Source of the DNA: Myxococcales bacterium
GTDB taxonomy: Bacteria > Myxococcota_A > UBA9042 > JABWCM01 > BTVJ01
DNA: 64,000 nt
Assembly: GCA_045863395.1 (NCBI GenBank)
Contig: BTVJ01000006.1
Location: 96,001 to 160,000, forward strand
Reading direction: 5' to 3'
Positions within the stretch are counted from its first letter, which is position 1. Each line of letters opens with the position of its first letter. A program made the position numbers and the translations under genes. The notes under the pieces are model-generated. The model searched no databases and was not told the DNA's origin. It worked only from the letters and a program-made list of their open reading frames with translations. Shown here one piece after another: positions 20,507 through 49,217 of this stretch.

Positions 20507-20625
20507 TCGCGCCGCCGCCGCTGTCCCGACGCCCCCTTCCGCCCCCTCTCCTTGACACGGGTCTGGTCTACGCGCCAGCCTGACATGGCCATACCACACG
20601 GGCCTTGCTGAATCGGAGGCGCGCC

Positions 20626-26600: not shown

Positions 26601-29600
26601 GACCCGCGCCGTCGTCGATGAGGGCGGTCGCGCCGTGACCCGGGAGGTGATCCATCGGGGAAGCAGCGACGAGGTGACCATCGGCGCGCGCTTCGACCAT
26701 GACGCCGTGGGGAGGCTGCTCCGCGTGGCGGACGGTCTCGGGCAGGTGCAGCGGGAGCTGGCCTGGGACAGCCTCGGGCGCCTGCGCGCAGAGCGCGACG
26801 AGCGGGGCTCGGTCACGGAGACCCGCTGGGACATGCTCGGCGCGGCACAGGAGACGACGCGGACGCTGCCGGGCGGCGAGCGGCGCACGACGCTCTTCGC
26901 CGCGACGCAGGGGTACCTGCGCGGCGAGGAGGCCTTTGGCGAGGGCGGCGGGGTCACGCCGTTGGGCGAGCGGCAGACCCTGTATGACGCCCTGGGACGG
27001 CCAGCCGTCGTGTACCCGCACGGCCTGGGCTCGCCGCAGACCGCCGAGGAGACCCTCGCCTGGGCAGGGGGCGCCGCCTGGCGCCGCACGTCGAGCGGCG
27101 CGACGATCACGAGCGAGATCGACGCCCTGGGGCAGCCACTCGAAGAGGTGGCGCAGGAGCCCGCGAAGCCGCAACCCGGGTACGCCCCAGCGGCGGTACG
27201 CACCGCGGTCCGGTCCTTCCGCTGGGACGCGGTCGGGCACCTGACCATGGCGCGCAACCTCTCCACGGACGACCTGCCGGTCTCCACGGTGCTCCGGGGC
27301 CACGACAGCCACGGGAACCTGATGCGCGAGGACCTCCACCTGCACCTTGGGGCGGGGGGCGAGCAGCACACCCGCACCCTCGCCACCTGGGACGACGGGG
27401 GCGCGCTGGTCAGCCTGGTGCCTGAGGCGGGCCCCGCCAGCGTGCTCATCGAGCACCAGCGTGACCCGCTCGGGCGCCTCGTTGCGACCCGGGTCGCGCC
27501 CACGACCGGAACTGCGTTCGCCTACGCCTACCCGAAGGCGATCACCTACACCTGGGCCGGGGAGCTGCTCCGCAAGCGGGTCGCCACTCTCGACAGCACG
27601 TTCCAGCCAGGGGAGGTCCCGTTCACTACCACCTTCGAGCACGACGAGCGGGGGCAGACCTGGCGGGTGGTCAACGCGGGCCCCGGCGGCGAGCTCTGGC
27701 GCCAGGAGCGCCTCTTCTGGCAGGGGGACGCCGTGGTGGACGTGACCGCCTCGGTCAAGGGAGGGGTCCCGCAGGCCGACCTCGCGCCCATCGAGGCGCT
27801 GGGGCGGGCTGGGGTCGCGCGGCTGCTGGCGCCCCCGACGGACCTCCTCGAGGCGCAGCCTTCCTACCAGGGCTGGCCGGACACCGCGCTCGGGAGCGCC
27901 GTCGCCGTGCGGGCGCTCGACGGGGACGGGGAGCCCGTCCGGCAGACCGTCACGCGCTGGGCCAAAGGCTACGGCAACCCCATGCTCTCCGGCACGTGGA
28001 CCACGCGCCGTGGAGGGCGCCTCGCCGAGGAGGCGTCGCTGCTGTGGGAGCCCGAGAAGGGCAAGGCCATGGAGGCGCGGCACCTGACCGTCGAGGCCGC
28101 CCCCGATGGCACGGACCGGGCGGTCGGGGCGGCGCATCGCCTCGTCCGCAAGGTGGCGGCCCCCTTCGCGAAGCCGGCTCCCGGGGGGAGCGCCGCGGCC
28201 CCCACCCTCGCGGGCCACCCGACGAACCGCGCCGACCACCTGGCCTTCGAGCACGGCGGCCCGGGGGTGCTGGCGCACGACGGCTGCCCCGGGGCGTGCG
28301 CGGACGGGAACCCCCGCCATCGCTACGGCTATGACGCCTGGGACCAGCTCGTCCGCATCGCCGCCGACGAGCCCGCCGCATGCACCGCCCCAGGCCCCGC
28401 CATGGACGACGTGTGGCCGGTCGCCACGGAGCTCGTCGTCGTGCGTGACGCCCTCGGCCGCCGGGTCGCCGAGCGGTGGGAGCTGCCGCCGGGCTGCGCG
28501 ACCCCGGAGTCCACGCTCCGCGGGGAGCGGGACCGCACCTTCCACTACCTCGGCGACACGGAGGTGGGCGAGCGCATCGAGCAGAGCACGGGCGACGGGG
28601 TCGTGACGCTGCTGCAAGGGCCCGAGGGCCTCGCCTGGGTCGCCGTCGCCTTCCCCTACGACCACGACAATCAGTACGTCGTGCTGCCGGACGCCACGGG
28701 TGGCCACGCAGGCGTCTGGGACGTGCGCAACCAGGGGCTCGCAGCCCCTGACTCACCGTCCCCCTGGTTCCGCCCCCACCCGATGCTCGCCATCGATCCG
28801 GCGGTGAGCTGGTCCTGGCGCTGGCTGGGCGGCGGCCTGGAGACCCAGCCCTTCGGCGCGATCACGTGGATGCAGGGCCGCGAGGCCGCCCACGACCTGC
28901 GCTCCAATCCCCTTGCCGACCGGTGGTACGCCACGCTTCACGCCACCGAGGGCTTCTGGGAGTCGGTGGGTGAGAAGGCGCTGGTGGCCCTCAACCTGTT
29001 CGCCGCGGCGGTGGGGTTCGTGCCCTTCGTCGGGGACCTGGTGGGGCTGCTCGCCGACGCCGTCTCCATCGGCGCGGACTTCGCGGCGGATGGCATGAGC
29101 TGGAGCCTCGCCGGCAAGGGGCTCCTCGCCGTGGGCCTCGCCGCGGTGGGCATCGGCGCGAGCCTGGCCGGGCCGGAGGGGTGGGCCGCCAAGGGCGCGG
29201 CGCGGGCTACGATCAGCTCGGCACGGGCGGGCCGGGCGGCGGCCCTGACCGCGGACGGCATCGGGGCGGCGAGGGCGCTCGATGCTCCCGGCGGCGCGGC
29301 CCAAGCGGCTCGCGCTGCGCAGGGGGGCGCCCAGAGCGCCATCCAGGCGTCCCGGGCGGCAGAGGCGGCGGCGGCGGCCCGCCTGGCACAGGAGCAGCGC
29401 ACCACGCACTTCCTGGGGAGGCTGTTTCGGGGGTACGTCCGGAGCCGTGGCGGCCTGGCGGGGGCTCCCCTGCCCGTCGCGCAGCGGCGCCTCCTGAACC
29501 AGGACCAGTGGGCGACGCGTGGCTTCGACGCCTGCGGGCCGACGGCCCTCGCCATGGTCCTCTCCGACTACGGCGTGCGCCTGACCGACGGGGCCCAGCG

Positions 29601-30012
29601 GCTTCTGAGCCGCGTTGTGGGGCACGGGGTCGTCTTCGGTACGCCCGCCGAGGGGTTGGCGCGCGGCGCAAGCGCGGCGGGCCTGCGCGCCGTCGTCCGC
29701 GAGATCCACGATCAGCGCGAGGCCTTCGAGGCGCTCCGCCGCGCCACCCAGCGGGGCGTCCCGGTCATCGCCTGGGAGCGCATCTTCGACCAGGGCTACG
29801 CGACCCGCCGCCTCCAGCAAGGCCGCAATGTGCGCGGTGCCCACTGGATCGTCGTCGACCAGTGGGTGGCGGAGACGGCCCACAGCCCGGCGGGCTTCTG
29901 GGTCCGCGACCCGGCGATCAGCTCGCGCTACGGGGTGCTGGAGCCCGCGTTCGTGCCCGAGTCCGAGATGCGGGACCTCATCGGGCATCAGCTCATCGGG
30001 CTGTTCAGGTAG
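20626..30012 (+). CDS. Giant RHS/YD-repeat protein with lipoprotein signal, DUF6531-like segment, hydrophobic pre-toxin segment and C-terminal C39-like cysteine peptidase
   Basis: GGAGG RBS; LALGTGC lipobox. YD-like units: VTDPFGRKVVYGYE, THYTYDEGRLTSV, YDSRG, HYDLAGRR, HDAVGRLLRVADGLG, YGYDAWDQL, RDALGRR. C-terminus Q...ACGPTALAMVL...HWIVV...VRDPA. Confidence 0.85.
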   Translation: MVTLSRLLCSLLASWVLALGTGCSDDDGGPGSSQDAGGSEGDTRVTTGGNALLRGPWPQATGAPGADPERPLAATWRMARGGTPGNGFVTVPCREGCYGPCGIAWEVPSDRRIADAQVVVGAGDAIFVHVLEGPDAVAGSGPDGYASTVLRVSAAGDDLFAREPVPLDPLGVLAALAVDADEAVPLVRDMISLETEDGPALVVLMHIAWRAGGQWSVRDVIVGIDPAVEARRFLYGFPQEVFTQTTPFMPEWGAEAIRVDGLGRLVVLKKGRIEQQGRLYAAPLPRQGEGLAGAGLVAEVVEIPLEGTGAPYAIDAFEVDDRDRLWTVGRESVSPPLCTDDRRFEQLRLRVFAPDGALLEDRPDPAHTFVSVSRVHVERDRDNGALRAILLGSLPTDPTCIDLVLHYPKAADQFTDDEDDPTRCPRRFEQACTTGGDCPCRGCEGMLQICPPPLFGGAPPGLAEVWWYADDTDVAVLVASGKRATPVVAPGRVVTDGRGLAMLGGTRLQVIDMKADAGALMLLSAEEWHVESSPWADGMQSLASVAGGWQTPLFGAPVGGAVPFVAALRSTVTDESVSFENAGIIRHATEWGNLVTGTVAGHAGLTSRTVARRRGPFEDYYVAHGEVDRVYPLDGGRLLHVFHWAGPAAKKSGASGGANERRLELRIAVPGGGLWEGRDLQPAAGAPMPLVPPCVDGDPPETCRYPLGTTVVPEEVQTVAVHEVSCLLTDSAGAAQVGCSRDELVRQWEGSQAATLAQASSGKVRPLCLASGVRERRTTAEDGSVTLHVLCEAFTETLAPSHPTGLVSLVPRDHATTCDAWGEPLPLRTVGLASVIDVTITDASGAPVTSVEVGQAVTVVVTTTGSVHIEVLSGGATLNGGVEAHVGGGEPVLLVATAEGVVVLRVTVTDAWGMVVGTRLVAIAVEGPGACSGAADGSTFSVCHPLLEVDAPDGEDTYESLADPAVVREVLLHDRSLLHTAVDHRVEGFGPSVVLARTHRSGVLPAKGGIMGGWHLSLDMRLSPVAAPGDDSWLLSESDGSDGEVRVHDLALMDPTGRVDVWRHPGVSELVQFGGSGPDFWVWDPAALKVVARPFSARVVTFQAPRGRFAALRSYTLVLEPGVAAHQKHPYYRPDRGFHTAERRFYELVEPSGLRRIFDCKGRLALIIDPQHREVELLWEGPVHPLTHVRALSGMVDAAGRRWAVEWKDVAGIPRVWRVTDPFGRKVVYGYEALPDEGARLLTVTKDFGDGESTHYTYDEGRLTSVTRPGASEPWLRVEYAGGAVVRQVVGREAPQAPGVSDGGVTTFLAVGGGVRVTDGRGTARTYALEALPGGGPVVVASERWVREVATDGDPGPRLLPSRAPVEVARTFTHEASGLVASITHPSGRVESFVWSPGGRLAERREDPVSGGAARVEKWTWEAMDPGWPGFACEVETGSLSATGAKTSRVVAPLDPAMPGLACTAVASDLPPVTAASGAKVAVRVEDDLEVGGVLRGALKVRRLLQGGALHESTRVEHAVVATPTPAEVAAAPQGKVAMPALGHTVAIEVHRPRPPECPADTATDARTDIESDERGNPVRTVTSYTGAPCTAGAPCPAGVCEAGRCRTTLVIEKEVDGHDRVVRTVVDAGGAAHESRARYDSRGLPTERSVRVADDVQVGGPPFQWTPPRWVTTTVHYDLAGRRIASVVEAPGERSFELTALDAEGGVVATLVPGPGADDATVAAVVEAVRGGESPAEILAAWGPEALGPGNFASVAPHSGVLLDPRVVLRTTERDADGLPIRETVTDGQAGCAVCAAIHGHTTELWRDAEGRVVYEDPGRDDRAADGRRVLVETTRDGLGRPTERAVRDPLGCAGPDTVVRRELSLDYGAHDTPALTEIRGDDGRASVTAGSLDVVACDTGALLSRTEAERDARGDVVALVEHRFALLAQDQGAPGAQGARTTRFGRDAQGRVVEERATGEGLNRRERTAYGLQGGACWSAVGTGTDVTVETRAVVDEGGRAVTREVIHRGSSDEVTIGARFDHDAVGRLLRVADGLGQVQRELAWDSLGRLRAERDERGSVTETRWDMLGAAQETTRTLPGGERRTTLFAATQGYLRGEEAFGEGGGVTPLGERQTLYDALGRPAVVYPHGLGSPQTAEETLAWAGGAAWRRTSSGATITSEIDALGQPLEEVAQEPAKPQPGYAPAAVRTAVRSFRWDAVGHLTMARNLSTDDLPVSTVLRGHDSHGNLMREDLHLHLGAGGEQHTRTLATWDDGGALVSLVPEAGPASVLIEHQRDPLGRLVATRVAPTTGTAFAYAYPKAITYTWAGELLRKRVATLDSTFQPGEVPFTTTFEHDERGQTWRVVNAGPGGELWRQERLFWQGDAVVDVTASVKGGVPQADLAPIEALGRAGVARLLAPPTDLLEAQPSYQGWPDTALGSAVAVRALDGDGEPVRQTVTRWAKGYGNPMLSGTWTTRRGGRLAEEASLLWEPEKGKAMEARHLTVEAAPDGTDRAVGAAHRLVRKVAAPFAKPAPGGSAAAPTLAGHPTNRADHLAFEHGGPGVLAHDGCPGACADGNPRHRYGYDAWDQLVRIAADEPAACTAPGPAMDDVWPVATELVVVRDALGRRVAERWELPPGCATPESTLRGERDRTFHYLGDTEVGERIEQSTGDGVVTLLQGPEGLAWVAVAFPYDHDNQYVVLPDATGGHAGVWDVRNQGLAAPDSPSPWFRPHPMLAIDPAVSWSWRWLGGGLETQPFGAITWMQGREAAHDLRSNPLADRWYATLHATEGFWESVGEKALVALNLFAAAVGFVPFVGDLVGLLADAVSIGADFAADGMSWSLAGKGLLAVGLAAVGIGASLAGPEGWAAKGAARATISSARAGRAAALTADGIGAARALDAPGGAAQAARAAQGGAQSAIQASRAAEAAAAARLAQEQRTTHFLGRLFRGYVRSRGGLAGAPLPVAQRRLLNQDQWATRGFDACGPTALAMVLSDYGVRLTDGAQRLLSRVVGHGVVFGTPAEGLARGASAAGLRAVVREIHDQREAFEALRRATQRGVPVIAWERIFDQGYATRRLQQGRNVRGAHWIVVDQWVAETAHSPAGFWVRDPAISSRYGVLEPAFVPESEMRDLIGHQLIGLFR

Positions 30013-30085: not shown

Positions 30086-33016
30086 CTACTTCTTGCCGCC
30101 GCAGGACGACTGGGCCGCCGTGGACACGACCACGCCGTGCTGCACGCCCGTGATCAGGCCGAGGCTGACCAGCGTGTTGGCGCTGTGCGCCACGCACGAG
30201 ACGTACTGGCCGTGGTTCTTCCACGCCGTCGTCGTCCCCCTGGGCCCGCTGCAGGGGCAGAGCTGCGGGATGGAGCAGCCGTTGGCCGGGTCGACCACTG
30301 CGCCAGCGAGGGTGCTGGGGCACAGGTCGCCGCCGTCCGCCACTCCGTCGCCGTCGTCGTCGTCGTCGCAGGCGTCACCGAGGCCGTCTCCGTCGTAGTC
30401 CGCCTGCGTCGGGTTGGCCACCAGGGAGCAGTTGTCGCCGCCGTCGAGGACGCCGTCGTTGTCGTCGTCCGCGTCGCACGCATCGCCCTGGCTGTCGCCG
30501 TCCGTGTCGATCTGATCCGCGTTGCCGAGGAACGGGCAGTTGTCGACGCCGTCGATGATGCCGTCGTTGTCGTCGTCCGGGTCACACACGTCGCCGAGGC
30601 CGTCCCCGTCGTTGTCCGCCTGGTCGCCGTTGGACCCGAGCGGGCAGTTGTCGTCGCCGTCCTCGACGCCGTCGTTGTCGTCGTCCGCATCGCAGGCGTC
30701 TCCCGCGCTGTCCCAGTCGTTGTCCGCCTGGTCGTCGTTGGCCGTCAGCGGGCAGTTGTCCGCCTCGTTCTCGACGCCGTCGCCGTCGATGTCGCTGTCG
30801 CAGGAGTCGCCGAGGCCGTCACCATCGAGATCGGTCTGGTCCCCGTTTGGCGCGAGCGGGCAGTTGTCGTCCGCATTGAGAACCCCGTCGCCGTCGGCGT
30901 CGTCGTCACAGAGGTCGCCCTGGCCGTCGCCGTCCGTGTCGGTCTGACCAGCGTTGGCCGTGAACTGGCAGTTGTCAGCGCCGTCGAGCACGCCATCGTC
31001 GTCGTCGTCGGCGTCGCACGCATCGCCGTCGCCATCGCCGTCGTTGTCGCTCTGGTCGGAGTTGCCGTCGAAGGGGCAGTTGTCGGCGGTGTCCTCGACC
31101 CCGTCGTTGTCGTCGTCCGGGTCGCAGGTGTCGCCAGCGCCGTCGCCGTCGTTGTCGCCCTGGTCACCGTTGGCGTCGAAGGGGCAGTTGTCGGCGGTGT
31201 CCTCGACCCCGTCGTTGTCGTCGTCGTCGTCGCAGGCGTCTCCTGCGCCGTCGAGGTCGTTGTTCGCCTGATCCGCGTTGGCTACGAACGCGCAGTTGTC
31301 CGCACCGTCCTCGACGCCATCGTTGTCGTCGTCCGGATCGCACGCGTCGCCCGCGCCATCGCTGTCGTTGTTGCCCTGCCCCGGGTTCGCGGTCAGCGGG
31401 CAGTTGTCAGCCCCGTCGGCCACGCCGTCGCCATCGTCGTCCGCGTCGCAGGCGTCACCCTCGCCATCGCCGTCCGTGTCGACCTGGTCGGCGTTCGCCA
31501 CGAGATCGCAGTTGTCGTCCACGTCATCGACGCCGTCGTTGTCGTCGTCCGCGTCGCAGGCGTCGCCGATGCCGTCGCCCTCGCTGTCCTCCTGGCCCGC
31601 GTTGGCGCTCACCGGGCAGTTGTCGGCACCGTCGGCGATGCCGTCGTTGTCGTCGTCCGGGTCGCAGGCGTCGCCGAGGCCGTCGCCATCCGTGTTGGTC
31701 TGGTCCGGGTCGGCCACCCATGGGCACACGTCGCTGCCGTTGGCCACGCCGTCGCCGTCCACGTCACCGTCGCAGGCATCACCGGCCCCGTCCAGGTCCT
31801 GGTCGAGCTGGTCCGCGTTCGCCGTGAACTGGCAGTTGTCGATGGAGTCGATGACCCCGTCGTTGTCGTCGTCGGGGTCGCATGCGTCGCCGGCCCCGTC
31901 GAAGTCGTTGTTCGCCTGGGTCGGGTTCGGCACGAGCGGGCAGTTGTCGCTCGTGTCTAGCACACCGTCGTTGTCGTCGTCCGGGTCGCACGCGTTACCC
32001 AGGGCGTCACCGTCGGTGTTCTGCTGCGTGGGGTTTGCCACCAGCGGGCAGTTGTCGAACTGGTCCTGGACGCCGTCGTTGTCGTCGTCCGGGTCACAGG
32101 CGTCGCCCAGGGAGTCCCCGTCCGTGTTGAGCTGGTTCGCGTTCGGCACCGTGGGGCAGTTGTCGGCGGTGTCCGGCTTGCCGTCCCCGTCGGTGTCCGG
32201 GTCCTGGCCGGGGCAGCCCGTGCTCGCGGGCTGGCCCGTGGGAGCCCCGACGTGCAGACGATCAACGACGGCGCCCGCGTTCAAGACGTTGTCGTAGCGG
32301 TCCGACGCCTGGAAGCGCAGCGTGATGGTCTGGCCCTGGTACGCCGAGACGTTGACGACCACGTGGCGGGTCACGAGGCCCCACTCGAAGGCGCTGTTGC
32401 CCTTGTAGTACCCGAGCTCACACGAGAGGTACGCCTGGGCGATCAACGTGCTCTGGACACCCGCCACGAGGTAGACGCGGAAGGGGTCCTCGTAAGGGAC
32501 GTAGTCCCACTCGAAGAACCGGTAGTCGAACTCGAGGTGCGTCGCCCCGAAGGGGATGGCCAACCCCACGTGGAGACCGCCCTGATTGCACAGCGTCCCG
32601 AACTGCGCGTCGGACGTGCAGCCCCCCATGGAGGTGCTCGACACGGTGCTCGACCCCACGCCCGGGATGATGTTGCGCGCGTCACCACTCGCAATGATCA
32701 GGTAGCTCGACCCGTGGGTGGGGAAGCCACCGGCAGGGACGGTGGTCACCTGCGACTGGAAGTGGGCGCCGTGGTCGCTCATGCCCACGATGGCGTTGGA
32801 TGTCTGGGTGTTGGCCGCCAGCGCGCTCCTGAGGGCCGTGAGTGTGTAGTGGCTGCTGTGGGCCTCGGACAGGTCCTCCGTCCCCTCCGGCGCCGGGCGG
32901 GCGAAGGAAGGATCGGGCGGGACCGCGTCCCCGGAGTGCTCCCCCTCGTGCGCGAAGGCCAAGGGCGCCTGCAGGACGGCGAGGGCTGCGGCCCAGCGCC
33001 ATGGTGCTTTGAACAT
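30086..33016 (-). CDS. Secreted thrombospondin type-3 (Ca-binding) repeat protein
   Basis: Signal peptide (MFKAPWRWAAALAVLQAPLAFA), a beta-sandwich-like N-domain, 17 tandem 36-aa DxDxDGVxDxxDNCPxxxNxxQxDxDxDGxGDACD repeats, C-terminal WKNHGQYVSCV motif. Confidence 0.9.
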   Translation of the reverse strand: MFKAPWRWAAALAVLQAPLAFAHEGEHSGDAVPPDPSFARPAPEGTEDLSEAHSSHYTLTALRSALAANTQTSNAIVGMSDHGAHFQSQVTTVPAGGFPTHGSSYLIIASGDARNIIPGVGSSTVSSTSMGGCTSDAQFGTLCNQGGLHVGLAIPFGATHLEFDYRFFEWDYVPYEDPFRVYLVAGVQSTLIAQAYLSCELGYYKGNSAFEWGLVTRHVVVNVSAYQGQTITLRFQASDRYDNVLNAGAVVDRLHVGAPTGQPASTGCPGQDPDTDGDGKPDTADNCPTVPNANQLNTDGDSLGDACDPDDDNDGVQDQFDNCPLVANPTQQNTDGDALGNACDPDDDNDGVLDTSDNCPLVPNPTQANNDFDGAGDACDPDDDNDGVIDSIDNCQFTANADQLDQDLDGAGDACDGDVDGDGVANGSDVCPWVADPDQTNTDGDGLGDACDPDDDNDGIADGADNCPVSANAGQEDSEGDGIGDACDADDDNDGVDDVDDNCDLVANADQVDTDGDGEGDACDADDDGDGVADGADNCPLTANPGQGNNDSDGAGDACDPDDDNDGVEDGADNCAFVANADQANNDLDGAGDACDDDDDNDGVEDTADNCPFDANGDQGDNDGDGAGDTCDPDDDNDGVEDTADNCPFDGNSDQSDNDGDGDGDACDADDDDDGVLDGADNCQFTANAGQTDTDGDGQGDLCDDDADGDGVLNADDNCPLAPNGDQTDLDGDGLGDSCDSDIDGDGVENEADNCPLTANDDQADNDWDSAGDACDADDDNDGVEDGDDNCPLGSNGDQADNDGDGLGDVCDPDDDNDGIIDGVDNCPFLGNADQIDTDGDSQGDACDADDDNDGVLDGGDNCSLVANPTQADYDGDGLGDACDDDDDGDGVADGGDLCPSTLAGAVVDPANGCSIPQLCPCSGPRGTTTAWKNHGQYVSCVAHSANTLVSLGLITGVQHGVVVSTAAQSSCGGKK
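30362..32197 (-). repeat. 17 x 108-bp intragenic tandem repeat (TSP3 units)
   Basis: Counted from the translation; the DNA recurrence gggcagttgtc...gtcgttgtcgtcgtcc has a 108-bp period. Confidence 0.9.
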
Positions 33017-33264
33017 GGACATACCTCGACGGAGCAAACGGTCCTCAAGACCGGTGCGTCTGAGCGTGGGGGCGCGTAAGTCGCGTCCCCACTTGGATGA
33101 CCCAGATTTCGGGATCGGCGGAGATGCTCGCACGGGTCCCGAGCGGACGTCAAGGTACTTTGCTGCGTGTGGCGCTGAAGTGGACGAAATTTCGGCGTTC
33201 TTCGGTGTCTTGCGTGGCTGGACCGCGACGGTGGGGGCGCCAAGGCGAGCCCAGCGGCGCTCGG

Positions 33265-35922
33265 CTACAGCGGCTCGAACCTCCCCTGGAAGAACCGCAG
33301 CTTCGCCGGCTCGTAGACCAGGCGCAGGCCCCCGATCTCGTGGCGACGCTCATGGAGGCGGATGATGCCCTCCGCGACGGCCCTCATGTGGTCGTTGGTG
33401 TAGACGCGCCGCGGCAGGGTCAGGCGCACGAGCTCCAGGGCGGGGCGGTAGTTCTGCCCCGTCTTGGGGTCGCGGCCCTTGGAGACGTTGCCGCGCTCCA
33501 TGGCGCGGACCCCCGTCTCCACGTACAGCTCGGCGGCGAGGCGCTGGGCGGGGTACTCGTCCTGGTCGACGTGGGGCAGGAAGCGCCTGGCGTCGAGGAA
33601 GATGGCGTGGGTGCCGCTCGGCTCCACCACCGGCACGCCCGCATCGCGCAGGAGCTGCCCCAGCAGGTGGGTCTGCCGCACCCGCGAGCGGATGTACCGG
33701 TCGTCGATGGCCTCCTCGATGCCCCGGGTGGTGGCGGCCAGGTCCGCCGTCGAGAGCCCGCCGTCGGTGACGTTGCCCTCGTGGATACGCAGCAGGTGCC
33801 GCGCCTGGTCGGCGAGCTTGCCGTCCTCGCGGAAGGCCAGCAGGCCCCCGATGTTGATGAGGAAGTCCTTCTTGCCGCTCACCGTGCAGCCGTCGCCGTA
33901 GAGCATCATCTCCCGCACGATGTCCCGGATGCGCGTGTCGTGGTAGCGCGGGTCGTGGAGCTTTATCATGTGCGCGTTCTCGATGAAGCGCGTCGCGTCG
34001 AAGTACACGGGGATGCCGTGTCCGCTGCACAGGCTGTAGACCTCGCGCATGTTGTCCATGCTCACGGGCTGGCCGCCGGCCATGTTCACGGACAGCTCGA
34101 AGGACACGTAGGCGATCTTCGCGGCGCCGTGCTCGTCGATGAGCGCCCGGAGCTTGCTCAGATCGATGTTGCCCTTCCAGGGGAAGTCGCTCTCCGGCTG
34201 GTGGGCCTCGTCCACGATGACGTCCGCGAAGGTGCCGCCCGCCAGCTCCTGGTGGAGCTTGGTGGTCGTGAAGTACATGTTGCCGGGCACGAGCTGGCCC
34301 GGCTTGATGCAGACCGTGCTCAGGATGTGCTCGGCGGCTCGCCCCTGGTGGGTGGGGAGGATGTGCTCGTAGCCGAGCAGCTCCCGCAGGAGCCCCACCA
34401 GGCGGTGGTGCTCGTCGCTGGCGGTGGCGCTCGCCCGCGCGCTCTCGTAGGCCGCCCACTGGTCGGTGCTCATGGCAGACGTGCCCGAGTCGGTGAGCAG
34501 GTCGATGGCCACGTCCGCGGAGCGCAGCAGGAACGTGTTGTAGCCGGCCGCCCGAATCGCCGCGGCCCGCTTCTCCCGGCTCAGGGTCGCCACCTTCTCG
34601 ATGCTGTGGATGGTGTAGGGGAAGGTGTCGAGCTCCGTGGTCTCGATGGCCGGAAAGACGCCGTGGTAGGCCATCTGGTCGCGCCAGGGTCCGCTCTCGA
34701 TGGCGTGGAGCCCCGGGATGGACGCGCGCTGCTCGTGGAGCCGGATGATGGCATCGGCCACCGCGTCGAGCTGCTCGTTGGTCAGGGCCAGCCGCGGGAT
34801 CTGGACGGGGACCAGGGTGTCCCGGGCGACCAGGCCATGGGCCACGGCCCGCACGCCCGAGGCCAGGTAGAGCGCCGCAGAGAGCGTGTCCTGCTGGTGG
34901 GCGTCCAGGTGGGGCAGGAAGGCGTCGGCTCGCAGGTAGGCGCCGTCACACCCCCGCTCCAGGGGGACGCCGGCGTCGCGCAGCCGCGCGGTGAAGCGCT
35001 CGGTCTGCGCCATGACCCACTGGACCTCGGGCTCGTCGCACATCTCCGCGATGCCGCGGCAGAGCTGCTCCAGCGTGCGGCCGGACATGCCCCCGTAGGT
35101 GTGCAGCCCCTCGAAGACCACCACCTCGTTCATGAGCTTCTCGTGGTCGGCGGGGTTGTCCGTGGTCAGGATGCCCCCGGTGCTGCACTTCGGGTCCTGG
35201 GCGCCGTCGAGCTGGAACACGTGGCTGGTCTTCACGATCTGCCGCACGATCTCGCCGATGGAGCGGCTGCCTTGGCCCGGCTCGTGCTGCTGGATGTACC
35301 AGGCGTTCTCGATGACCCGCGAGCCGTCGCAGATCAGGCGCTTCCCGTAGGTGTCCGCCAGCACCCGCACCGCGCGCAGGTTCGCCAGCGAGAAGGGGTG
35401 CTGGCCGTCGGCGAAGGCCTGGAGCCCGACCAGGGCCACGTTGCCGCCTTTCAAGATGGCCTCCAGGCGCCCGAGGTCCACGTTGCCCGTGAACACCGGG
35501 GCCTCATGATCGCGCACGTCGGGGTACTCGACGCGCAGGGAGGCGAGCTGGTCGAGGCGCGAGCGGGCGTTGCTCGGAAGGATCGAGCCCGGCGGCACCA
35601 TGGTCGACACCACCAGCTTCACGCACCCGAGCAGGTTGTGGGTGGGGCACACGTAGTGGTGGCCGAGCACCTCGCGGACGACCCGCTCCAGGGTCTCGAA
35701 GTTGCGCGACCCCGCGTAGGCCTCGTCTCCGATGCGCTCGCCCGCCACCTGCTCCTGCGTGACGGCGCTCGTGCCCATGGAGCACATATCGAAGGTGACC
35801 TGGCTCGGTGTCAGGTGCCACACGTTGAAGCGCGCCCGCGCCAGGTTGCGCTTGCGCTCGTCGAGGGTCGGGAACGGGATCAGTCGCACTGTCTTGATCT
35901 TGTGGGGCTCGTGGCTCTGCAT
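33265..35922 (-). CDS. tpl: Double-length (tandem-fused) tyrosine phenol-lyase/tryptophanase-family beta-eliminating lyase
   Basis: Two consecutive TPL-like units (EPHKIKTV... and FPYTIHSIE...). The second has IDLLTDSGT, PTHQGRAAE, GNMYFTTT, DATR, SGKKD, VETGVRAMERG, VRLTLPRRVYT, LRFF. Start ATG 35922. Confidence 0.88.
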   Translation of the reverse strand: MQSHEPHKIKTVRLIPFPTLDERKRNLARARFNVWHLTPSQVTFDMCSMGTSAVTQEQVAGERIGDEAYAGSRNFETLERVVREVLGHHYVCPTHNLLGCVKLVVSTMVPPGSILPSNARSRLDQLASLRVEYPDVRDHEAPVFTGNVDLGRLEAILKGGNVALVGLQAFADGQHPFSLANLRAVRVLADTYGKRLICDGSRVIENAWYIQQHEPGQGSRSIGEIVRQIVKTSHVFQLDGAQDPKCSTGGILTTDNPADHEKLMNEVVVFEGLHTYGGMSGRTLEQLCRGIAEMCDEPEVQWVMAQTERFTARLRDAGVPLERGCDGAYLRADAFLPHLDAHQQDTLSAALYLASGVRAVAHGLVARDTLVPVQIPRLALTNEQLDAVADAIIRLHEQRASIPGLHAIESGPWRDQMAYHGVFPAIETTELDTFPYTIHSIEKVATLSREKRAAAIRAAGYNTFLLRSADVAIDLLTDSGTSAMSTDQWAAYESARASATASDEHHRLVGLLRELLGYEHILPTHQGRAAEHILSTVCIKPGQLVPGNMYFTTTKLHQELAGGTFADVIVDEAHQPESDFPWKGNIDLSKLRALIDEHGAAKIAYVSFELSVNMAGGQPVSMDNMREVYSLCSGHGIPVYFDATRFIENAHMIKLHDPRYHDTRIRDIVREMMLYGDGCTVSGKKDFLINIGGLLAFREDGKLADQARHLLRIHEGNVTDGGLSTADLAATTRGIEEAIDDRYIRSRVRQTHLLGQLLRDAGVPVVEPSGTHAIFLDARRFLPHVDQDEYPAQRLAAELYVETGVRAMERGNVSKGRDPKTGQNYRPALELVRLTLPRRVYTNDHMRAVAEGIIRLHERRHEIGGLRLVYEPAKLRFFQGRFEPL

Positions 35923-36101
35923 GGTCCGCCTCGGTTGGTTGTCCCCCCCGGTCCGGCAGGACACTATTGGACCGGGAAGTCCGGAGTCAACGCGCGGATC
36001 GGGGGCATCGGGGCTTCGGTGACGAAGGGGGTTGTGCCGGCGGGCGGGAGGGCGGATCCTGGGGCGGGGAGCGGGGGGCGCGTGGGTCAGGAGGTGACGG
36101 G

Positions 36102-38806: not shown

Positions 38807-40390
38807 TCAGGGAGAGATGGTCAGGTCGTCGATGAGCACCGTCGCGCTGCCCGCCGTGGCGAAGTCGTTCTCGTCGTAGAGGCGCACGAAGCCGCGCACG
38901 AAGGCCGCGTTGGCCGGGGCGGCCTTGGTGAAGCTGTAGTTCGCCCATGCCGCGGAGTCGCTCGTGTAGGTGGTCGAGAACTCGTTGGGGCTCAGCGCCA
39001 CCTTGGACGCCGTGTAGAAGGTCAGCGCCAGCCGGGCGCGCCCGTTCGGGTCGTTGTCCCGCATCCAGAGCGAGATGGTCGCGTCCATCCCAGGCACCAC
39101 CGGCACGAACATGCCCGCCATGAAGTCCTGGTTGCTGGTGGAGGTCCAGGTCAGCTTGGCCGCCGCCGCGCCACCGTGGACGCTGCCTGTCTCCTTCGTG
39201 GCCGTGAACTTGTCGGTGAGCTTGATGAAGCCCGCCGGCGGGTCAGACTGCGTCCAGTCCTCGAAGCCCCAATTTGAGTCGTCATAGACCGGCTCGGCTC
39301 CGCACCCGGACACGTCGACATTCCCGAGGTCCACGGCGCCGTCGTACACGCGAATCTGGTAGACCCCGTTGAACTCGGTGATCGCCGCCTGGAAGACGTC
39401 GAGCACCGCGCCCACGCAGAGGCTCCCCGGGGCGTTGTCCGCGAACATCTGGGTGTCGGCGACGCCGCCGTGGTCGAGCCAGAAGGTCTTGCCCGCCACC
39501 TTGGTGACGACGAGGTCGTTGCCGGCCACAAGCATACTCTCCACGAGCTCGGCCGCCACGAAGCCGTCGTCGATGGGCAGCGCCCAGCCGACCAGCGACT
39601 TCTTGCCCTTGGACGTCGGCGCCTCGTGGCCCGTGATCTCCTGCTGGCCGCTGAAGCTGCCGTACTCCGTCACCGGGATGTCCAGCACGTCGCCGGCCAC
39701 CGGCGGCGTGTAGGTCCAGTTGCCCGTGCCGACGAACACCAGGGTCGCGGGGCCCGCCGGGCCCTGTTGCACGAAGTAGCCCGCGCCGAACACGTAGGTC
39801 ACCGTGACGCCGCACAGGGTGAGGTCCACCGGCCCCTCCGGGGTGGCCTTCAGCTCCGCGATGGTGGCGCACGTCGGGCCGGTGCCCGTGTCCGGCGCGC
39901 CACCGGTGTCCTCCTCAGCCACGTCGGGGCCGCCGACGTCGACGGCCGTGTCGTCCGGCGTCGCGACGTCCTCGCCAGCTACGTCCGGTCCCTGCACGTC
40001 GGGCCCGGCGACGTCGTCGCCCGTGACGTCCGGGAGGGCGACGTCGTCGCCCGTGATGTCAACGCCCGGGACGTCGTCGCCCCCGATGTCGGTGGCGTCT
40101 CCCGCGCTGGCGTCCTCGGCGGCGTCCGCGCCGCCCGCGTCCGGGATGGACGCGTCGGATCCGCCGACATCGTTGGAGGTGCCGGTGTCCGTGGAGCCGA
40201 CGTCCGTGGTGCCAGTGTCCGCAGTGCCCGCGTCGCCCCCACCGCTGGCGTCCTCCCCTCCGCTCGTGTCTCCGGCTGCGTCACCGCCCGGGATCAGCGT
40301 GCCGCCCTTGTCGTCGTCGCGGCACGCCGCGCCTCCCACCACGAGGGCGAGGGCGAGGCCGGTGCGGGCGAGGAGTGTCCTGTGCTTCAT
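38807..40390 (-). CDS. Lipoprotein with acidic low-complexity stalk, OB-fold-like segments and C-terminal carbohydrate-binding-like jelly-roll domain
   Basis: GAAC lipobox; repeats GDDVxxPDVT; TIAELK...VTVTYV..GYFVQQG...GDVLDI; C-terminal NWGFEDW...VHGG..AAKL...APANAAFVR...LIDDL. Confidence 0.65.
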   Translation of the reverse strand: MKHRTLLARTGLALALVVGGAACRDDDKGGTLIPGGDAAGDTSGGEDASGGGDAGTADTGTTDVGSTDTGTSNDVGGSDASIPDAGGADAAEDASAGDATDIGGDDVPGVDITGDDVALPDVTGDDVAGPDVQGPDVAGEDVATPDDTAVDVGGPDVAEEDTGGAPDTGTGPTCATIAELKATPEGPVDLTLCGVTVTYVFGAGYFVQQGPAGPATLVFVGTGNWTYTPPVAGDVLDIPVTEYGSFSGQQEITGHEAPTSKGKKSLVGWALPIDDGFVAAELVESMLVAGNDLVVTKVAGKTFWLDHGGVADTQMFADNAPGSLCVGAVLDVFQAAITEFNGVYQIRVYDGAVDLGNVDVSGCGAEPVYDDSNWGFEDWTQSDPPAGFIKLTDKFTATKETGSVHGGAAAAKLTWTSTSNQDFMAGMFVPVVPGMDATISLWMRDNDPNGRARLALTFYTASKVALSPNEFSTTYTSDSAAWANYSFTKAAPANAAFVRGFVRLYDENDFATAGSATVLIDDLTISP

Positions 40391-40523
40391 GGCTCCGGCT
40401 CCTTGGTCTTCAGGGCGGGCCCGAGTGCCCGCGCCTGGGGCGCCTCTTACAACGTCGCCCTCCCGCGGTCAACCTCGACTCGGCCCGGTGGCTCGGGGTA
40501 GCATCGACGACCGGAGGTCCACC

Positions 40524-42851
40524 ATGCCGCTGTCCGTCCTCGTCACCCAGTGCCTGCAGAACGACTTCGTCGCCCCCATCGAGAGAAACGAGCCGCTGCC
40601 CAACGCTCTGCACGTGGGCCGCGAGGAGTCCCGGCGCCTGCTCGGGGCAGACCCCCACGCGGGCGCCGTGGCGCAGCTCCTCGCGTGGGCGCGCGCACAG
40701 GACCCCGAGCAGCTCGCCATCGTCCACATCCGGGACTGGCACGACCCGGCGGATCCACACCAGGCAGCGCACCTCGCGCGCTTCGGGAGCCATTGCCTCA
40801 AGGGGACGACCGGCGCCGCCTTCGTCCTCGGTCTGGACGACGTCCTGGGCACGGAGCGGGGCGAGCACGTCGTCGACGCGACCGGCCTCAACGACTTCGA
40901 GGGGACCAGCCTGGGCCCCATCCTGGAGCGCCTCCTCGCGCGGGCCGACGGCGCTCTGCGGGTAGGAGTCGTCGGGGTGTGGACCGAGGCCAAGGTCACG
41001 TTCCTGCTCTACGACCTGCTCACGCGGTTCGGGCTCACCGATGTCGCCACCTGCTCGGCCCTGACGGCGAGCAGCTCTCGGAATCGCCACTTCGCCGCCC
41101 TGGACCAGCTCCGGCGGATCCTCGGCGTGCAGGTGCATGACACGGTCGGCGACTTCACGTCGTGGCTCTTGCCCATGGGAGTCTCAGTCTCCGTGCCGGT
41201 ACCGCCTGGGGCGTGCGCCCCGAGACTCACCGCGGATACCGCCATCTCCGAGGAGGACCGCGCCCTCGTCGGCGTCCTGTACCGGGACGCCGCGGAGGTC
41301 GACCTCACCTCCCTGAGCGGCGGTTTCTCCGGCGCCCTGGTGTTCAAGGCGTCGAGCCGGGACCCCCTCGGCCACGTGCAGGCGCCGAGCGTGCTCAAGC
41401 TCGGGAGACGCTCGGAGATCGGCAAGGAGCGCGTCGCCTTCGAGCAGGTGGAGGACATCCTCGGGAACTCGGCGCCCAGCGTGCGAGGCTTCGTGGACCT
41501 GGGCGAGCGCGCCGCCATCAAGTACAGCTTCGCCGCCATGGGCCAGGGGGCGGTGCGCACCTTCAAGTCGCTCTATGAGTCCGGCGCACCCCAAGACCGG
41601 GTCGACGCCGTGCTCCACACGGTCTTTGGCGAGATCCTGGCACCGTTCTTCGCCGCAGCGCAGTATGATCGCTTGCCGCTCCTCGCCTCGTACCAGTTCT
41701 CTCCCCGGTGGGCGCAGTCGGTCGCTCGCAACGTCGAGGCGGTCGCCGGTGTCTCGGGGACGGCCGAGTCTCTCCAGTTTCCCGGAGGAATCTCACTCCC
41801 GAACGTCGTGCGCTTCTACGACCGGTTCCTGCCCGCGCGCCCCACGCACGACGGCGAGTCCCACTTCGTCTCGTGGGTGCATGGCGACCTGAACGGCGCG
41901 AACATCCTCCTCGACGCGCGGGACAACGTCTGGCTCATCGACTTCGCCCACACCGCGCGCACCCACGTGCTCAAGGACCTGGCGAAGCTGGAGAACGACC
42001 TCCTCTACATCTACACGCCCCTGACGACGGAGGTGGACCTGGCCGACGCGGTCGCCGTGAGCCAGGCGCTGCGGGCGGTGAGAGACCTGCGCGAGGCGCT
42101 CCCCGTGGAGCCTCCGGTGCCGTGTGCTCCCCCCCTTCGGCGCGCCTGGGCAACGCTGCGGACCCTGCGCGCCATCGTCGCCAGGGAGTGCCGGGAGGAC
42201 CGGGATCCGACGCAGCTCCGCGTCGCGCTCCTGCGCTACGCCGCGCACACCCTGTCCTTCGAGGAGTCGAACCCTCTCCAGCGTCGCTGGGCCCTCGCGG
42301 CCGCCTGCGGTCACGCGGAGGACGTCGAGCGGGCCCTCCTGGCCAGCGACCGGCTCCGGGTGGACTTCATCGAGCTCGGGCTCCTGCCGGGCCCAGGGCG
42401 GCTCGGCCTCACCATCTGCCCTGGGCGCCGTGACCGGGGGCGGGATCTGGCGGCGGATCTCGCGGCGCTCCGGGATGCGGGCGCCACGGATCTCGTCACC
42501 CTCGTCACGCGAGAGGAGCTGGAGTGGGCGGGCGTCCCCCACCTGGCGGCACAGGCGAGCGCCGCCGGGATGGCGGTGACCGTCGCGCCGATCCCCGACC
42601 AGGCCGTGCCCACCCTCGCGGAGGCGCGCGCCCTCGTCGGCGCCACTCTGGACGCGCTCCGGGCCGGACGCACCGTCGTCGCGCACTGCATGGGGGGCCT
42701 CGGCCGCTCGGGCCTGGTCGCCGCCTGTTGTCTGGTCGCCGTCGGTCTGTCGCCCCCCGACGCGGTCGCCGCCGTCCGCCGAGCGCGGGGCCCCCGCGCC
42801 GTGGAGACCACCGAGCAGGAGCGCTTCGTCGCCACCTTCGCTGGGGTGTGA
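40524..42851 (+). CDS. Three-domain protein: isochorismatase/nicotinamidase-like + APH/kinase-like phosphotransferase + CX5R (CDKN3/DSP-like) phosphatase
   Basis: GGAGG RBS, ATG 40524. LQNDF, HIRDWH, HCLKGTTGA; LSGGFSGALVF, VLKLG, HGDLNGANILLD, LIDFAH, DLAKLE; PIPDQAVP, HCMGGLGRSG, AVETTEQ. Confidence 0.85.
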   Translation: MPLSVLVTQCLQNDFVAPIERNEPLPNALHVGREESRRLLGADPHAGAVAQLLAWARAQDPEQLAIVHIRDWHDPADPHQAAHLARFGSHCLKGTTGAAFVLGLDDVLGTERGEHVVDATGLNDFEGTSLGPILERLLARADGALRVGVVGVWTEAKVTFLLYDLLTRFGLTDVATCSALTASSSRNRHFAALDQLRRILGVQVHDTVGDFTSWLLPMGVSVSVPVPPGACAPRLTADTAISEEDRALVGVLYRDAAEVDLTSLSGGFSGALVFKASSRDPLGHVQAPSVLKLGRRSEIGKERVAFEQVEDILGNSAPSVRGFVDLGERAAIKYSFAAMGQGAVRTFKSLYESGAPQDRVDAVLHTVFGEILAPFFAAAQYDRLPLLASYQFSPRWAQSVARNVEAVAGVSGTAESLQFPGGISLPNVVRFYDRFLPARPTHDGESHFVSWVHGDLNGANILLDARDNVWLIDFAHTARTHVLKDLAKLENDLLYIYTPLTTEVDLADAVAVSQALRAVRDLREALPVEPPVPCAPPLRRAWATLRTLRAIVARECREDRDPTQLRVALLRYAAHTLSFEESNPLQRRWALAAACGHAEDVERALLASDRLRVDFIELGLLPGPGRLGLTICPGRRDRGRDLAADLAALRDAGATDLVTLVTREELEWAGVPHLAAQASAAGMAVTVAPIPDQAVPTLAEARALVGATLDALRAGRTVVAHCMGGLGRSGLVAACCLVAVGLSPPDAVAAVRRARGPRAVETTEQERFVATFAGV

Positions 42852-49094: not shown

Positions 49095-49217
49095 ATGCAG
49101 TGTCTCCGTAGGTCTGGTGAGAGAGCCCGGGACTCCGGGCGTGCACACGGGGAGGTGACGGGAGGCAGGGGCGGTTCTGTCGGGGCGTGGGTTACAAAGG
49201 GGGGCGGGCCACTGGGG

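Follow-up and report, generated by a model that had tools for sequence, protein, structure and literature searches.

A single gene in the analysed window (64,000 nucleotides of contig BTVJ01000006.1 from a Myxococcales bacterium) encodes an 885-residue protein that, judged from its sequence, is likely a tyrosine phenol-lyase (TPL) in which two copies of the enzyme have been joined in tandem and share one active site. Each copy holds active-site parts missing from the other, so a working site needs one of each.

Architecture and Occurrence of the Fusion

The gene, at 33265..35922 on the reverse strand, is read as a tandem fusion of two TPL-family units from its translation, its Pfam and TIGR02618 matches and the alignment of its halves. 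The frame translates into 885 residues with no internal stops and contains two stretches matching Pfam Beta_elim_lyase (PF01212; 320.7 bits against a cut-off of 27). Half 1 (residues 1-423; 34654..35922, reverse strand) lacks the PLP lysine and carries the trans loops and the N-terminal arm, and a linker (residues 424-433; 34624..34653, reverse strand) leads to the PLP-bearing half 2 (residues 434-885; 33265..34623, reverse strand), which retains the cis residues and has lost both trans tyrosines. Half 2 begins at F434 (34623), in agreement with the initial annotation, which had placed the junction of two TPL-like units in one open reading frame near 34625. The halves share 29% identity over 437 columns (E 4e-48). 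The linker is nearly fixed in length: of 120 aligned proteins, 117 have a span of 23 residues from W413 to P435, and the other three have 24. Upstream, a probable but weak promoter (TTGACT-16-AATAGT at 35990-35963, within 35929..35990, reverse strand) is the one promoter-like site found, against a shuffle mean of 0.1 (sd 0.4), and a weak ribosome-binding-like word, GAGG (35932-35929, reverse strand), precedes the ATG at 35922. In two studies, RNA-library contigs end at 35945, which is only a weak hint; such contigs hold the fusion gene, and their presence says nothing about transcription. On the 3' side of the gene, neither a terminator-like site nor an unusual RNA fold (z 0.89) was found.

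In the search for full-length homologues of about 880-900 residues proposed in the initial annotation, the best 119 listed have 866-925 residues and 72-87% identity to the fusion, and distinct full-length sequences number more than 180 overall. Residue counts below refer to 187 non-identical fusions, mostly close relatives. Among 80 GTDB loci, 69 are closed open reading frames with the motifs of both halves, eight reach a contig end, two are closed but lack the final RFFQ motif and one stops at 542 residues, away from the junction. Since all 80 loci come from metagenome-assembled genomes, an assembly artefact or read-through across two adjacent genes might be suspected; this scarcely credible reading is refuted by the distinct full-length homologues with their near-constant linker and by single contigs that bridge the junction in two public runs of other studies. 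The hosts are uncultured Gemmatimonadota, Acidobacteriota, Eisenbacteria, Planctomycetota, Myxococcales and others, and the database names of the fusions are "tryptophanase," which is frequent, or "tyrosine phenol-lyase."

None of the 80 GTDB loci is broken at the junction, so the searched set offered no example of the two halves as separate genes. A tandem pair in one genome consists of two intact genes side by side, one TPL-type and one tryptophanase-type, and was rejected as a split fusion. Free-standing half-1 proteins of 233-742 residues were sought among the best 120 of 6899, which comprised many partial or short-contig sequences followed by ordinary single-domain proteins; 11 of these hits were inspected individually.

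At 9 of 80 loci, the upstream region has an Lrp/AsnC regulator on the other strand, a point in favour of the TPL reading. Besides this regulator, the most frequent neighbours are members of a kinase family (at 17 of 81 loci) and blocks common to close relatives. No neighbour tied to the fusion gene recurs widely across the scanned loci, and the recurring ones include neither an aromatic amino-acid transporter nor any other tyrosine gene, which counts against that reading.

Division of the Catalytic Residues

In TPL, roles have been described for Lys257, Arg381, Tyr71 and Thr124 in an active site situated where one subunit meets its neighbour (PMC10170061). In E. coli tryptophanase, Tyr74 and Tyr307 extend to the PLP phosphate of the neighbour (PMC2770544). 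The motifs named in the initial annotation were all located where it had placed them, and alignments to solved TPL bore out its residue equivalences to the Citrobacter freundii enzyme. In half 1, the GDEAYAGS motif (35707..35730, reverse strand) supplies E67 and Y69, the equivalents of the cation ligand Glu69 and the general acid Tyr71, and the EGLHTYGG motif (35089..35112, reverse strand), common to single-domain relatives, supplies Y276, the equivalent of Tyr291; all three residues are retained in 187 of 187 fusions. The latter motif also contains L273 at the position of Met288, a TPL-diagnostic trans residue. The PLP motif of half 1 is dead (DGAQD; 35194..35208, reverse strand), with Q242 in place of Lys257 (Gln in 183/187, Lys in 1/187).

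Half 2 has the complementary set. Its SGKKD motif (33865..33879, reverse strand) provides the PLP-binding K685, equivalent to Lys257 (187/187), and its NMYFTTT motif (34261..34281, reverse strand) provides F551 and T552, equivalent to Phe123 and Thr124 (187/187). Further downstream are MERG (33490..33501, reverse strand), with M808 for Met379 (185/187) and R810 for Arg381 (186/187); VRLTLP (33412..33429, reverse strand), with R833 for the carboxylate-binding Arg404 (186/187; Pro in half 1 of 175/187); and RFF (33289..33297, reverse strand), with the equivalents of Phe448 and Phe449 (186/187). In total, K685 and 23 further cis positions are held in 185-187 of the 187 sequences. The GDEAY loop of half 2 has decayed to ARASATAS (34417..34440, reverse strand), where Tyr71 never occurs and Glu69 occurs in 6/187, and its NVTDGG motif (33757..33774, reverse strand) has D720 in place of Tyr291 (Tyr in 0/187, Asp in 181/187). 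Each catalytic residue examined is present once per chain, Met288 as Leu.

An unbiased scan gave the same picture: 14 of the 20 positions kept by half 1 only lie in the two trans loops, compared with 1 of the 81 kept by half 2 only, although the Fisher p of 1e-11 is overstated because the sequences are related. In half 2, 33 new changes have also become fixed, a point against the TPL reading, as some of them (Arg127Lys, Ile383Asn and Ala386Lys) are close to the pocket. The losses had been described as exactly reciprocal; the reciprocal split extends across the family, but it is not exact, as half 1 keeps the equivalents of Asp46 (186/187), Gly52 (181), Asp214 (182) and Arg217 (181), and often that of Asn262 (137/187; Ser in the 885-residue protein). 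Four more distant fusions deviate from the clean pattern. Divergent members of the family retain more of the dead site and offer a graded set in which to follow the formation of a pseudoenzyme after duplication.

The long branch of half 1 and the loss of most of its catalytic residues could also mark it as a decaying leftover or mere scaffold, with half 2 acting alone or with a second half 2. This is very improbable, given that half 1 is conserved about as well as half 2 among the homologues (73% vs. 77%), that its trans residues are invariant and that half 2 has no tyrosine at either trans position in any of the 187 sequences. Moreover, the Y74F variant of tryptophanase retains only about 0.4% of wild-type activity (PMC2770544).

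Tyrosine Phenol-Lyase or Tryptophanase

Five residues distinguish TPL from tryptophanase (PMC5805759). In the composite site of the fusion, four are of the TPL type (Thr124, Met379, Arg381 and Phe448) and Met288 is Leu, as in single-domain relatives, and none of the five residues diagnostic of tryptophanase (Asp137, Phe304, Val394, Ile396 and His463) is present. The whole chain scores 575.5 bits against the tryptophanase profile TIGR02617, which requires 825.8, and 851.9 bits against TIGR02618 (cut-off 720.7), the latter only as the sum of two stretches, since half 2 (622.8) and half 1 (234.6) each fall below the cut-off. All four single-domain relatives with the EGLHTYGG motif that were scanned exceed it (733-777 vs. 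720.7), and it is by this profile only that the group is classed as TPL; no characterised member of the group was found. In a quick tree, the half-2 sequences of the main lineage form a single clade within the TPL branch, with support 98. All half-1 sequences also group together, on long branches that make the grouping an unsafe guide to where half 1 came from or how often fusion occurred. The only other family member in the source genome is of the tryptophanase type. Across 50 fusion-bearing genomes, 47 other family stretches were typed, of which 44 are tryptophanase-type and three are half-2-like pieces; thus, there is no intact single-domain TPL among them. Residues, tree and genome content therefore all support the earlier preference for TPL over tryptophanase.

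It is unlikely that the split single site is kept for a main substrate other than L-tyrosine, such as a substituted tyrosine (DOPA or halo-tyrosine) or S-substituted cysteines. The trans loop has Leu for Met288 and His for Pro289, and the fixed changes of half 2 near the pocket would fit such a shift, as would a nearby 4Fe-4S gene at eight Gemmatimonadota loci with a weak reductive-dehalogenase match (23.4 bits, cut-off 24.3). However, the phenol-recognising Thr124, Arg381 and Phe448 are almost invariant, the Leu-His pair is also found in single-domain proteins above the TPL equivalog cut-off, the eight loci are close relatives, and the fusion-bearing genomes yielded no intact single-domain TPL among the typed stretches.

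Predicted Arrangement of the Live Site

When the halves were folded as separate chains and scored against controls, the complex scored 0.93 against 0.00 for the best control, a result that may reflect only likeness to solved TPL. Of 157 solved complexes, 116 attain the 0.93 mark, as do 2 of 215 mismatched pairs. The runs share at least 97% of their contacts, and partner pLDDT is at least 92. In this model, E67 of half 1 contacts G480, T481 and N690 of half 2, and Y69 contacts L476 and T477. Together with the family-wide split, these contacts support the proposal in the initial annotation that half 1 donates trans residues to the PLP site of half 2. It had suggested modelling to see whether the half-1 tyrosine sits in the half-2 pocket; Y69 makes the contacts above, and residues 274-277, Y276 included, are absent from the named interface residues. 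A half-1/half-2 pair would accordingly be predicted to form one live and one dead site, which implies one PLP per chain.

The choice between a pair inside a single chain and one shared by two chains is more finely balanced. A true single-chain pseudo-dimer, like glycine decarboxylase, comes close to being an even prospect: the single-chain AlphaFold model has a pTM of 0.83 and so holds one definite arrangement of the halves, and glycine decarboxylase offers a precedent of a fused two-half fold-type I chain (PMC7259800). In the AlphaFold model, pLDDT falls below 50 along both arms, in the trans-loop segments 65-71 and 274-278 and in 873-878, which tells against the shared-site TPL reading as a whole; the low value for the half-2 arm also tells against the single-chain pair. 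Further against that pair, only about 11 residues separate F423, equivalent to the TPL C-terminus, from F434, equivalent to Glu6, and both arms are conserved and reciprocally split, with Glu6, Lys9 and Lys11 held by half 1 (186, 184 and 186 of 187) and Glu14, Trp61, Tyr412 and His416 held by half 2 (187, 187, 186 and 181 of 187). The arms of half 1 may pair with those of half 2 over the non-catalytic interface, the neighbour that the short link would fit best. An AlphaFold model of residues 1-468 places strands at 8-11, 14, 436 and 442-443, in a block with pLDDT of just 45-68. With the arms split reciprocally and the linker short, two chains may come together to make the live site, an arrangement that is, on balance, a little more probable than its opposite.

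Proposed Origin and Fate of the Second Pocket

In the proposed scheme, a single-domain TPL-type gene would have undergone tandem duplication and fusion, after which the copies split the common active site. By sequence, half 2 has the cis pocket together with the PLP lysine (Lys257, Asp214, Arg217, Asn185, Gln98-Arg100, Ser254, Thr124, Arg381, Arg404, Phe448/449, Gly52 and Asn262), and half 1 has only the loops lent to a neighbour (Glu69, Tyr71 and Tyr291); the predicted reaction is the conversion of L-Tyr to phenol, pyruvate and ammonia. The assembly would most likely be a dimer of chains mimicking the TPL tetramer, with two live and two dead sites, in which the dead pocket is probably packed with fixed side chains as a rigid scaffold.

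In half 1, positions conserved at 95% or above number 12 of 19 in the pocket and 89 of 359 elsewhere (p 7e-4, among related sequences), and newly fixed residues include N185D, S254D, K257Q and H343D, with Y291D contributed by half 2. The phosphate cup now consists of acids and hydrophobics (S254D, R100L, K256A and the partner's Y291D), Arg404 is Pro, the equivalents of Tyr122-Thr124 are deleted and those of Phe448/449 are missing. A conserved arginine adjoining the deletion, R120 (175/187), might take up the cavity by pairing with these acids. The raised conservation, the retention of Asp214 and Arg217 and the newly fixed residues would also suit an effector site controlling the live site, which is compatible with TPL activity; this is unlikely, however, considering the altered phosphate cup, the lost equivalents of Arg404, Tyr122-Thr124 and Phe448/449, the potential of R120 to occupy the cavity and the fact that buried positions are conserved in any case. 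A structural plug is the likelier role. Less probable still is the combined scenario in which the chain locks arm-paired, non-catalytic neighbours, live sites form only between chains and the dead pocket binds an effector controlling closure; if true, it would constitute a naturally asymmetric, regulated TPL with a built-in pseudoenzyme subunit.

Comparison With Known Systems

TPL and tryptophanase, both homotetramers, have been studied extensively, and L-DOPA and tyrosine analogues are made with TPL. The best sequence and fold match of the fusion is TPL (EC 4.1.99.2; Citrobacter freundii and Erwinia herbicola; PDB 2ez1, 1tpl, 1c7g and 9j3u), with E 2e-160, a TM-score of 0.93 on the target and 52-55% identity. 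Known TPL is a homotetramer of subunits of about 456 residues, with four sites and a complete residue set per subunit, whereas the fusion joins two units with half a residue set each, half of its sites dead and asymmetric arms. Tryptophanase (EC 4.1.99.1; E. coli and Proteus vulgaris; TIGR02617, NF009709) shares family and fold with the fusion but differs in its diagnostic residues, and is represented in the source genome by a separate gene of its type. A literature search that covered few subscription journals and no supplements found no description of a fused or pseudoenzyme TPL or tryptophanase, and at least one mining study excluded sequences outside 400-600 residues (PMC12980246).

A half-dead natural form sorts conserved residues into those needed in cis, in trans and in the arms, and provides a scaffold for mutating each side of the active site independently. 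Against the background of half-of-sites behaviour in TPL, it would also allow a direct test of the second site's importance for turnover in a catalytic dimer.

Among fold-type I enzymes, the principle of a partner that lacks the lysine has precedents in glycine decarboxylase and SerTA, which limits the surprise. Eukaryotic serine palmitoyltransferase (LCB1/LCB2) is a heterodimer with one PLP lysine; it is of another family, membrane-bound and mostly encoded by separate genes. Published accounts cover the lysine of SPTLC2 and a single-chain form made by engineering. The glycine decarboxylase P-protein (GcvP/GLDC) is a fold-type I enzyme of two homologous halves, fused or alpha-beta, whose N-terminal half has Gln at the active-site Lys (PMC7259800), like Q242 of the fusion, in which the C-terminal K685 is the PLP lysine. 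It differs in family and reaction and stems from a much older duplication, with 26% identity across one region, and the fused form was not among the whole-chain fold matches listed. SerTA (Ser4/Ser5) of Serratia sp. ATCC 39006 is a heterotetrameric aminotransferase in which a lysine-less partner supplies residues to the active subunit, with one active site per heterodimer established by structure and mutants; unlike the fusion, it is encoded by two separate genes, has a truncated partner and belongs to a sugar-aminotransferase-type family (PMC11726168).

Gene layout and distribution of the fused family

Positions 33265-35922 of the window, on the minus strand, translate as a single 885-amino-acid ORF, and the Beta_elim_lyase profile matches two stretches of the encoded protein. 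Half 1 (residues 1-423) and half 2 (residues 434-885) are connected by a linker (residues 424-433) and align with 29% identity, which agrees with the initial annotation of two tandem TPL-like units in one ORF; each motif read there was found where it had been placed. Upstream of the ATG start codon at 35922 (minus strand) lie a GAGG word and a single sigma-70-like site. Contigs from the RNA libraries of two studies end at 35945 while DNA contigs continue past it, a weak hint that this position is the transcript start of the fused gene. The host genome is 8.77 Mb in size with 71% G+C, and near-identical DNA is present in sludge, wastewater and aquatic sequencing runs.

The fused two-unit family is real and widespread. 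The fusion junction is spanned by contigs of two other studies, and full-length homologues, which the initial annotation had proposed looking for, were found: the 119 best of 1754 matches are 866-925 amino acids long and 72-87% identical to the fused protein. A scan of GTDB retained 80 of 106 confirmed loci, all 80 from metagenome-assembled genomes, in Gemmatimonadota, Acidobacteriota, Eisenbacteria, Planctomycetota, Myxococcales, a Desulfobulbaceae, Gammaproteobacteria and an Anaerolineaceae. At 69 of these loci the ORF is closed and carries the three test motifs; eight reach a contig end, two are without the last motif and one ends at 542 amino acids. A search of representatives added 11 remoter two-unit proteins (847-928 amino acids, 37-50% identity).

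At two loci the fused gene is apparently frameshifted in half 2, through assembly error or decay: L071 (G045:C12) has a stop at 542 amino acids, and L034 (G017:C1) has 966 amino acids with the final motif absent. Two tryptophanase-like proteins, P0271 (706 amino acids) and P0275 (625 amino acids), carry an added N-terminal piece that by eye resembles the remnant of a second unit.

Division of active-site residues between the halves

In TPL, Lys257 holds PLP, Arg381 is described as the base and Tyr71 as the acid, Thr124 positions the phenol, and the active site lies at the interface with the neighbouring subunit (PMC10170061). From 203 fusions, 191 non-identical ones were taken, and each of their two halves was aligned with 33 single-domain TPL-type proteins and numbered on a Pantoea TPL; the counts use 187 fusions, mostly close relatives, leaving out four distant ones. 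Half 1 contains Gly67, Asp68, Glu69, Tyr71 and Tyr291 in 187/187 and has almost entirely lost Lys257 (1/187), Thr124 (0/187), Asn185 (0/187), Arg381 (4/187), Arg404 (0/187) and Phe448 (1/187). Half 2 retains each of 24 cis positions in 185-187 of the 187, with Tyr71 and Tyr291 both at 0/187 and Glu69 at 6/187.

The single-domain proteins share 199 positions with conservation of 95% or more; half 1 alone retains 20 of them, half 2 alone 81, both halves 46 and neither half 9, and 43 are mixed. Trans-loop positions account for 14/20 of the half-1-only set vs 1/81 of the half-2-only set (p = 1e-11, with loop bounds chosen by the analyst and the significance overstated by kinship). The division between the halves holds in these 187 fusions, but "exactly reciprocal", as had been claimed, slightly overstates it: half 1 also retains Asp46, Gly52, Asp214, Arg217 and, mostly, Asn262. 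Glu69, Gly52 and Asn262 of TPL have a role in cation binding.

Structural models and chain topology

TPL-equivalent numbers for residues of half 1 and half 2 were taken from alignments to solved TPL. When the two halves were modelled with PLP as unlinked chains, the complex scored 0.93 (best control 0.00), a mark attained by 116/157 solved complexes and 2/215 mismatches, with at least 97% contact agreement between runs and a partner pLDDT of at least 92. Half-1 residue E67 (Glu69) contacts G480, T481 and N690, and Y69 (Tyr71) contacts L476 and T477. Such halves can score well through resemblance to solved TPL, so the model shows fit, not binding. The model agrees, for E67 and Y69, with the proposal that half 1 lends its trans residues to half 2; Y276 (Tyr291) is absent from the named contacts. 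Tyr74 and Tyr307 of the E. coli tryptophanase extend to the phosphate of the neighbouring subunit's PLP (PMC2770544). A model of the single chain (pLDDT 84.5, pTM 0.83) is weak in both trans loops and both arms. A half-1/half-2 pair would comprise one live and one dead site, and one PLP per chain is predicted, whether the live pair lies within or across chains.

The N-terminal arms of TPL hold two catalytic dimers together (PMC10170061). Strand 12-17 of E. coli tryptophanase, equivalent by alignment offset to TPL 9-14, pairs across the non-catalytic interface (PMC2770544), and T15, V16 and I43 are reported as inter-dimer interface residues (PMC13578870). Half 1 retains Glu6, Lys9 and Lys11, with Arg at position 14, and half 2 retains Glu14, Trp61, Tyr412 and His416, its basic residue at 9 being gone. 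If residue 9 lies opposite the partner's 14, an arm of half 1 can pair only with one of half 2, and the protein would be a dimer of chains imitating the TPL tetramer. About 11 residues, nearly fixed in number, separate the equivalent of the TPL C-terminus from that of Glu6. This link suits joining to the arm partner, which would set the live sites between chains, and we lean slightly towards sites formed across two chains rather than within one.

The pocket without the catalytic lysine

Dead-pocket positions of half 1 are more conserved than the remainder of that half (12/19 vs 89/359 at 95% or above), so the pocket could serve as an effector site. Against such a role, acids and hydrophobic residues replace the original residues of the phosphate cup, Pro stands for Arg404, residues 122-124 are missing, and the retained Asp214 is accompanied by a conserved Arg beside this gap. 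The simpler reading from these substitutions is that the pocket may be plugged by its own side chains, and an effector site is the less likely one.

Substrate class and genomic setting

TPL and tryptophanase are told apart by five residues (PMC5805759), and the composite site has four of the TPL type (Thr124, Met379, Arg381 and Phe448). The fifth, Met288, is replaced by Leu inside EGLHTYGG, a motif present in 31/32 of the single-domain proteins nearest half 1; four scanned single-domain proteins with it, three from the 32 and one further, pass the TPL equivalog. Half-2 sequences from the main lineage cluster as a single clade within the TPL branch in both trees. The sole other family member in this genome is an intact, single-domain tryptophanase-type gene (457 amino acids; L081:5244-6614, minus strand, contig G000:C9). 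Other family matches were typed in 50 of 80 fusion-bearing genomes, a few short pieces being omitted; the 47 typed comprise 44 of tryptophanase type and three half-2-like pieces, in draft genomes from which further copies may be missing. The same locus, read in 11 of 60 relatives of this genome, holds the fusion in seven and a single-domain EGLHTYGG protein in four. Given these tryptophanase-type matches and the alternation among relatives, the fusion seems to occupy the TPL slot of its genomes. The initial preference for TPL over tryptophanase is supported by diagnostic residues, tree placement and genome content, and, judged by sequence, the fused protein probably works like a TPL of non-canonical architecture.

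Elsewhere, locus L158 (G062:C10:57173-59864) carries an intact single-domain TPL-type gene followed immediately on the same strand by an intact tryptophanase-type gene. An Lrp/AsnC-family regulator gene lies upstream of the fused gene on the opposite strand in 9/80 loci (L055:3740-4267, minus strand, and eight more), in Holophagales and Thermoanaerobaculia genomes. Eight Gemmatimonadota loci (L003:3612-5000, minus strand, and seven more) encode, near the fused gene, a 4Fe-4S dicluster protein whose N-terminal stretch is hydrophobic and which has a below-threshold reductive-dehalogenase match.

Within the window, a thrombospondin type 3 repeat protein with 18 matched stretches (30086-33133, minus strand) is encoded immediately downstream of the fused gene. 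The RHS-repeat protein at 20605-30012 (plus strand; 3135 amino acids) has a Cys motif in its C-terminal part that may resemble that of C39-like peptidases. A protein combining an isochorismatase-like domain, TCAD9 and a dual-specificity phosphatase domain (39804-42851, plus strand) precedes a Ser/Thr kinase that carries a PEGA domain (42947-44920, plus strand), a pair resembling a module for conflict or signalling. The gene at 44952-49148 (minus strand) encodes a glycoside hydrolase of family 9 that has Dictyostelium-type repeats.

Divergent fusions

Four fusions (P0242, P0244, P0245 and P0247) retain more traces of the half-1 site, such as Arg100, with unchanged polarity. In P0248, P0251, P0252 and P0254 (864-909 amino acids), half 2 falls outside the main clade, both lysines are in half 1 in three of the four, Tyr71 is in half 2 in two, and none of the four has more than one of Thr124, Arg381 and Phe448. 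These may represent a second, independent fusion with another function or substrate, or possibly an early stage of decay.

Comparison with known systems

A literature search that did not reach most subscription journals found no report of a fused or pseudoenzyme TPL or tryptophanase; a passing mention may exist. The available text of two family surveys contains no such fusion (PMC12980246, PMC8537960), and the former left out sequences beyond 400-600 amino acids. The split-site fusion is real, conserved and, for the TPL/tryptophanase family, apparently undescribed. Outside that family, a comparable precedent is eukaryotic serine palmitoyltransferase (LCB1/LCB2), a heterodimer with a single PLP lysine. 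Glycine decarboxylase, a fold-type I enzyme that is either fused or alpha-beta, has Gln for the lysine in its N-terminal half (PMC7259800), and the fused TPL-type protein likewise has a lysine-less N-terminal half. SerTA is described as a heterotetramer in which one partner has no lysine and each heterodimer has one site (PMC11726168), resembling the fusion in its lysine-less partner and in the single site predicted per half-1/half-2 pair.
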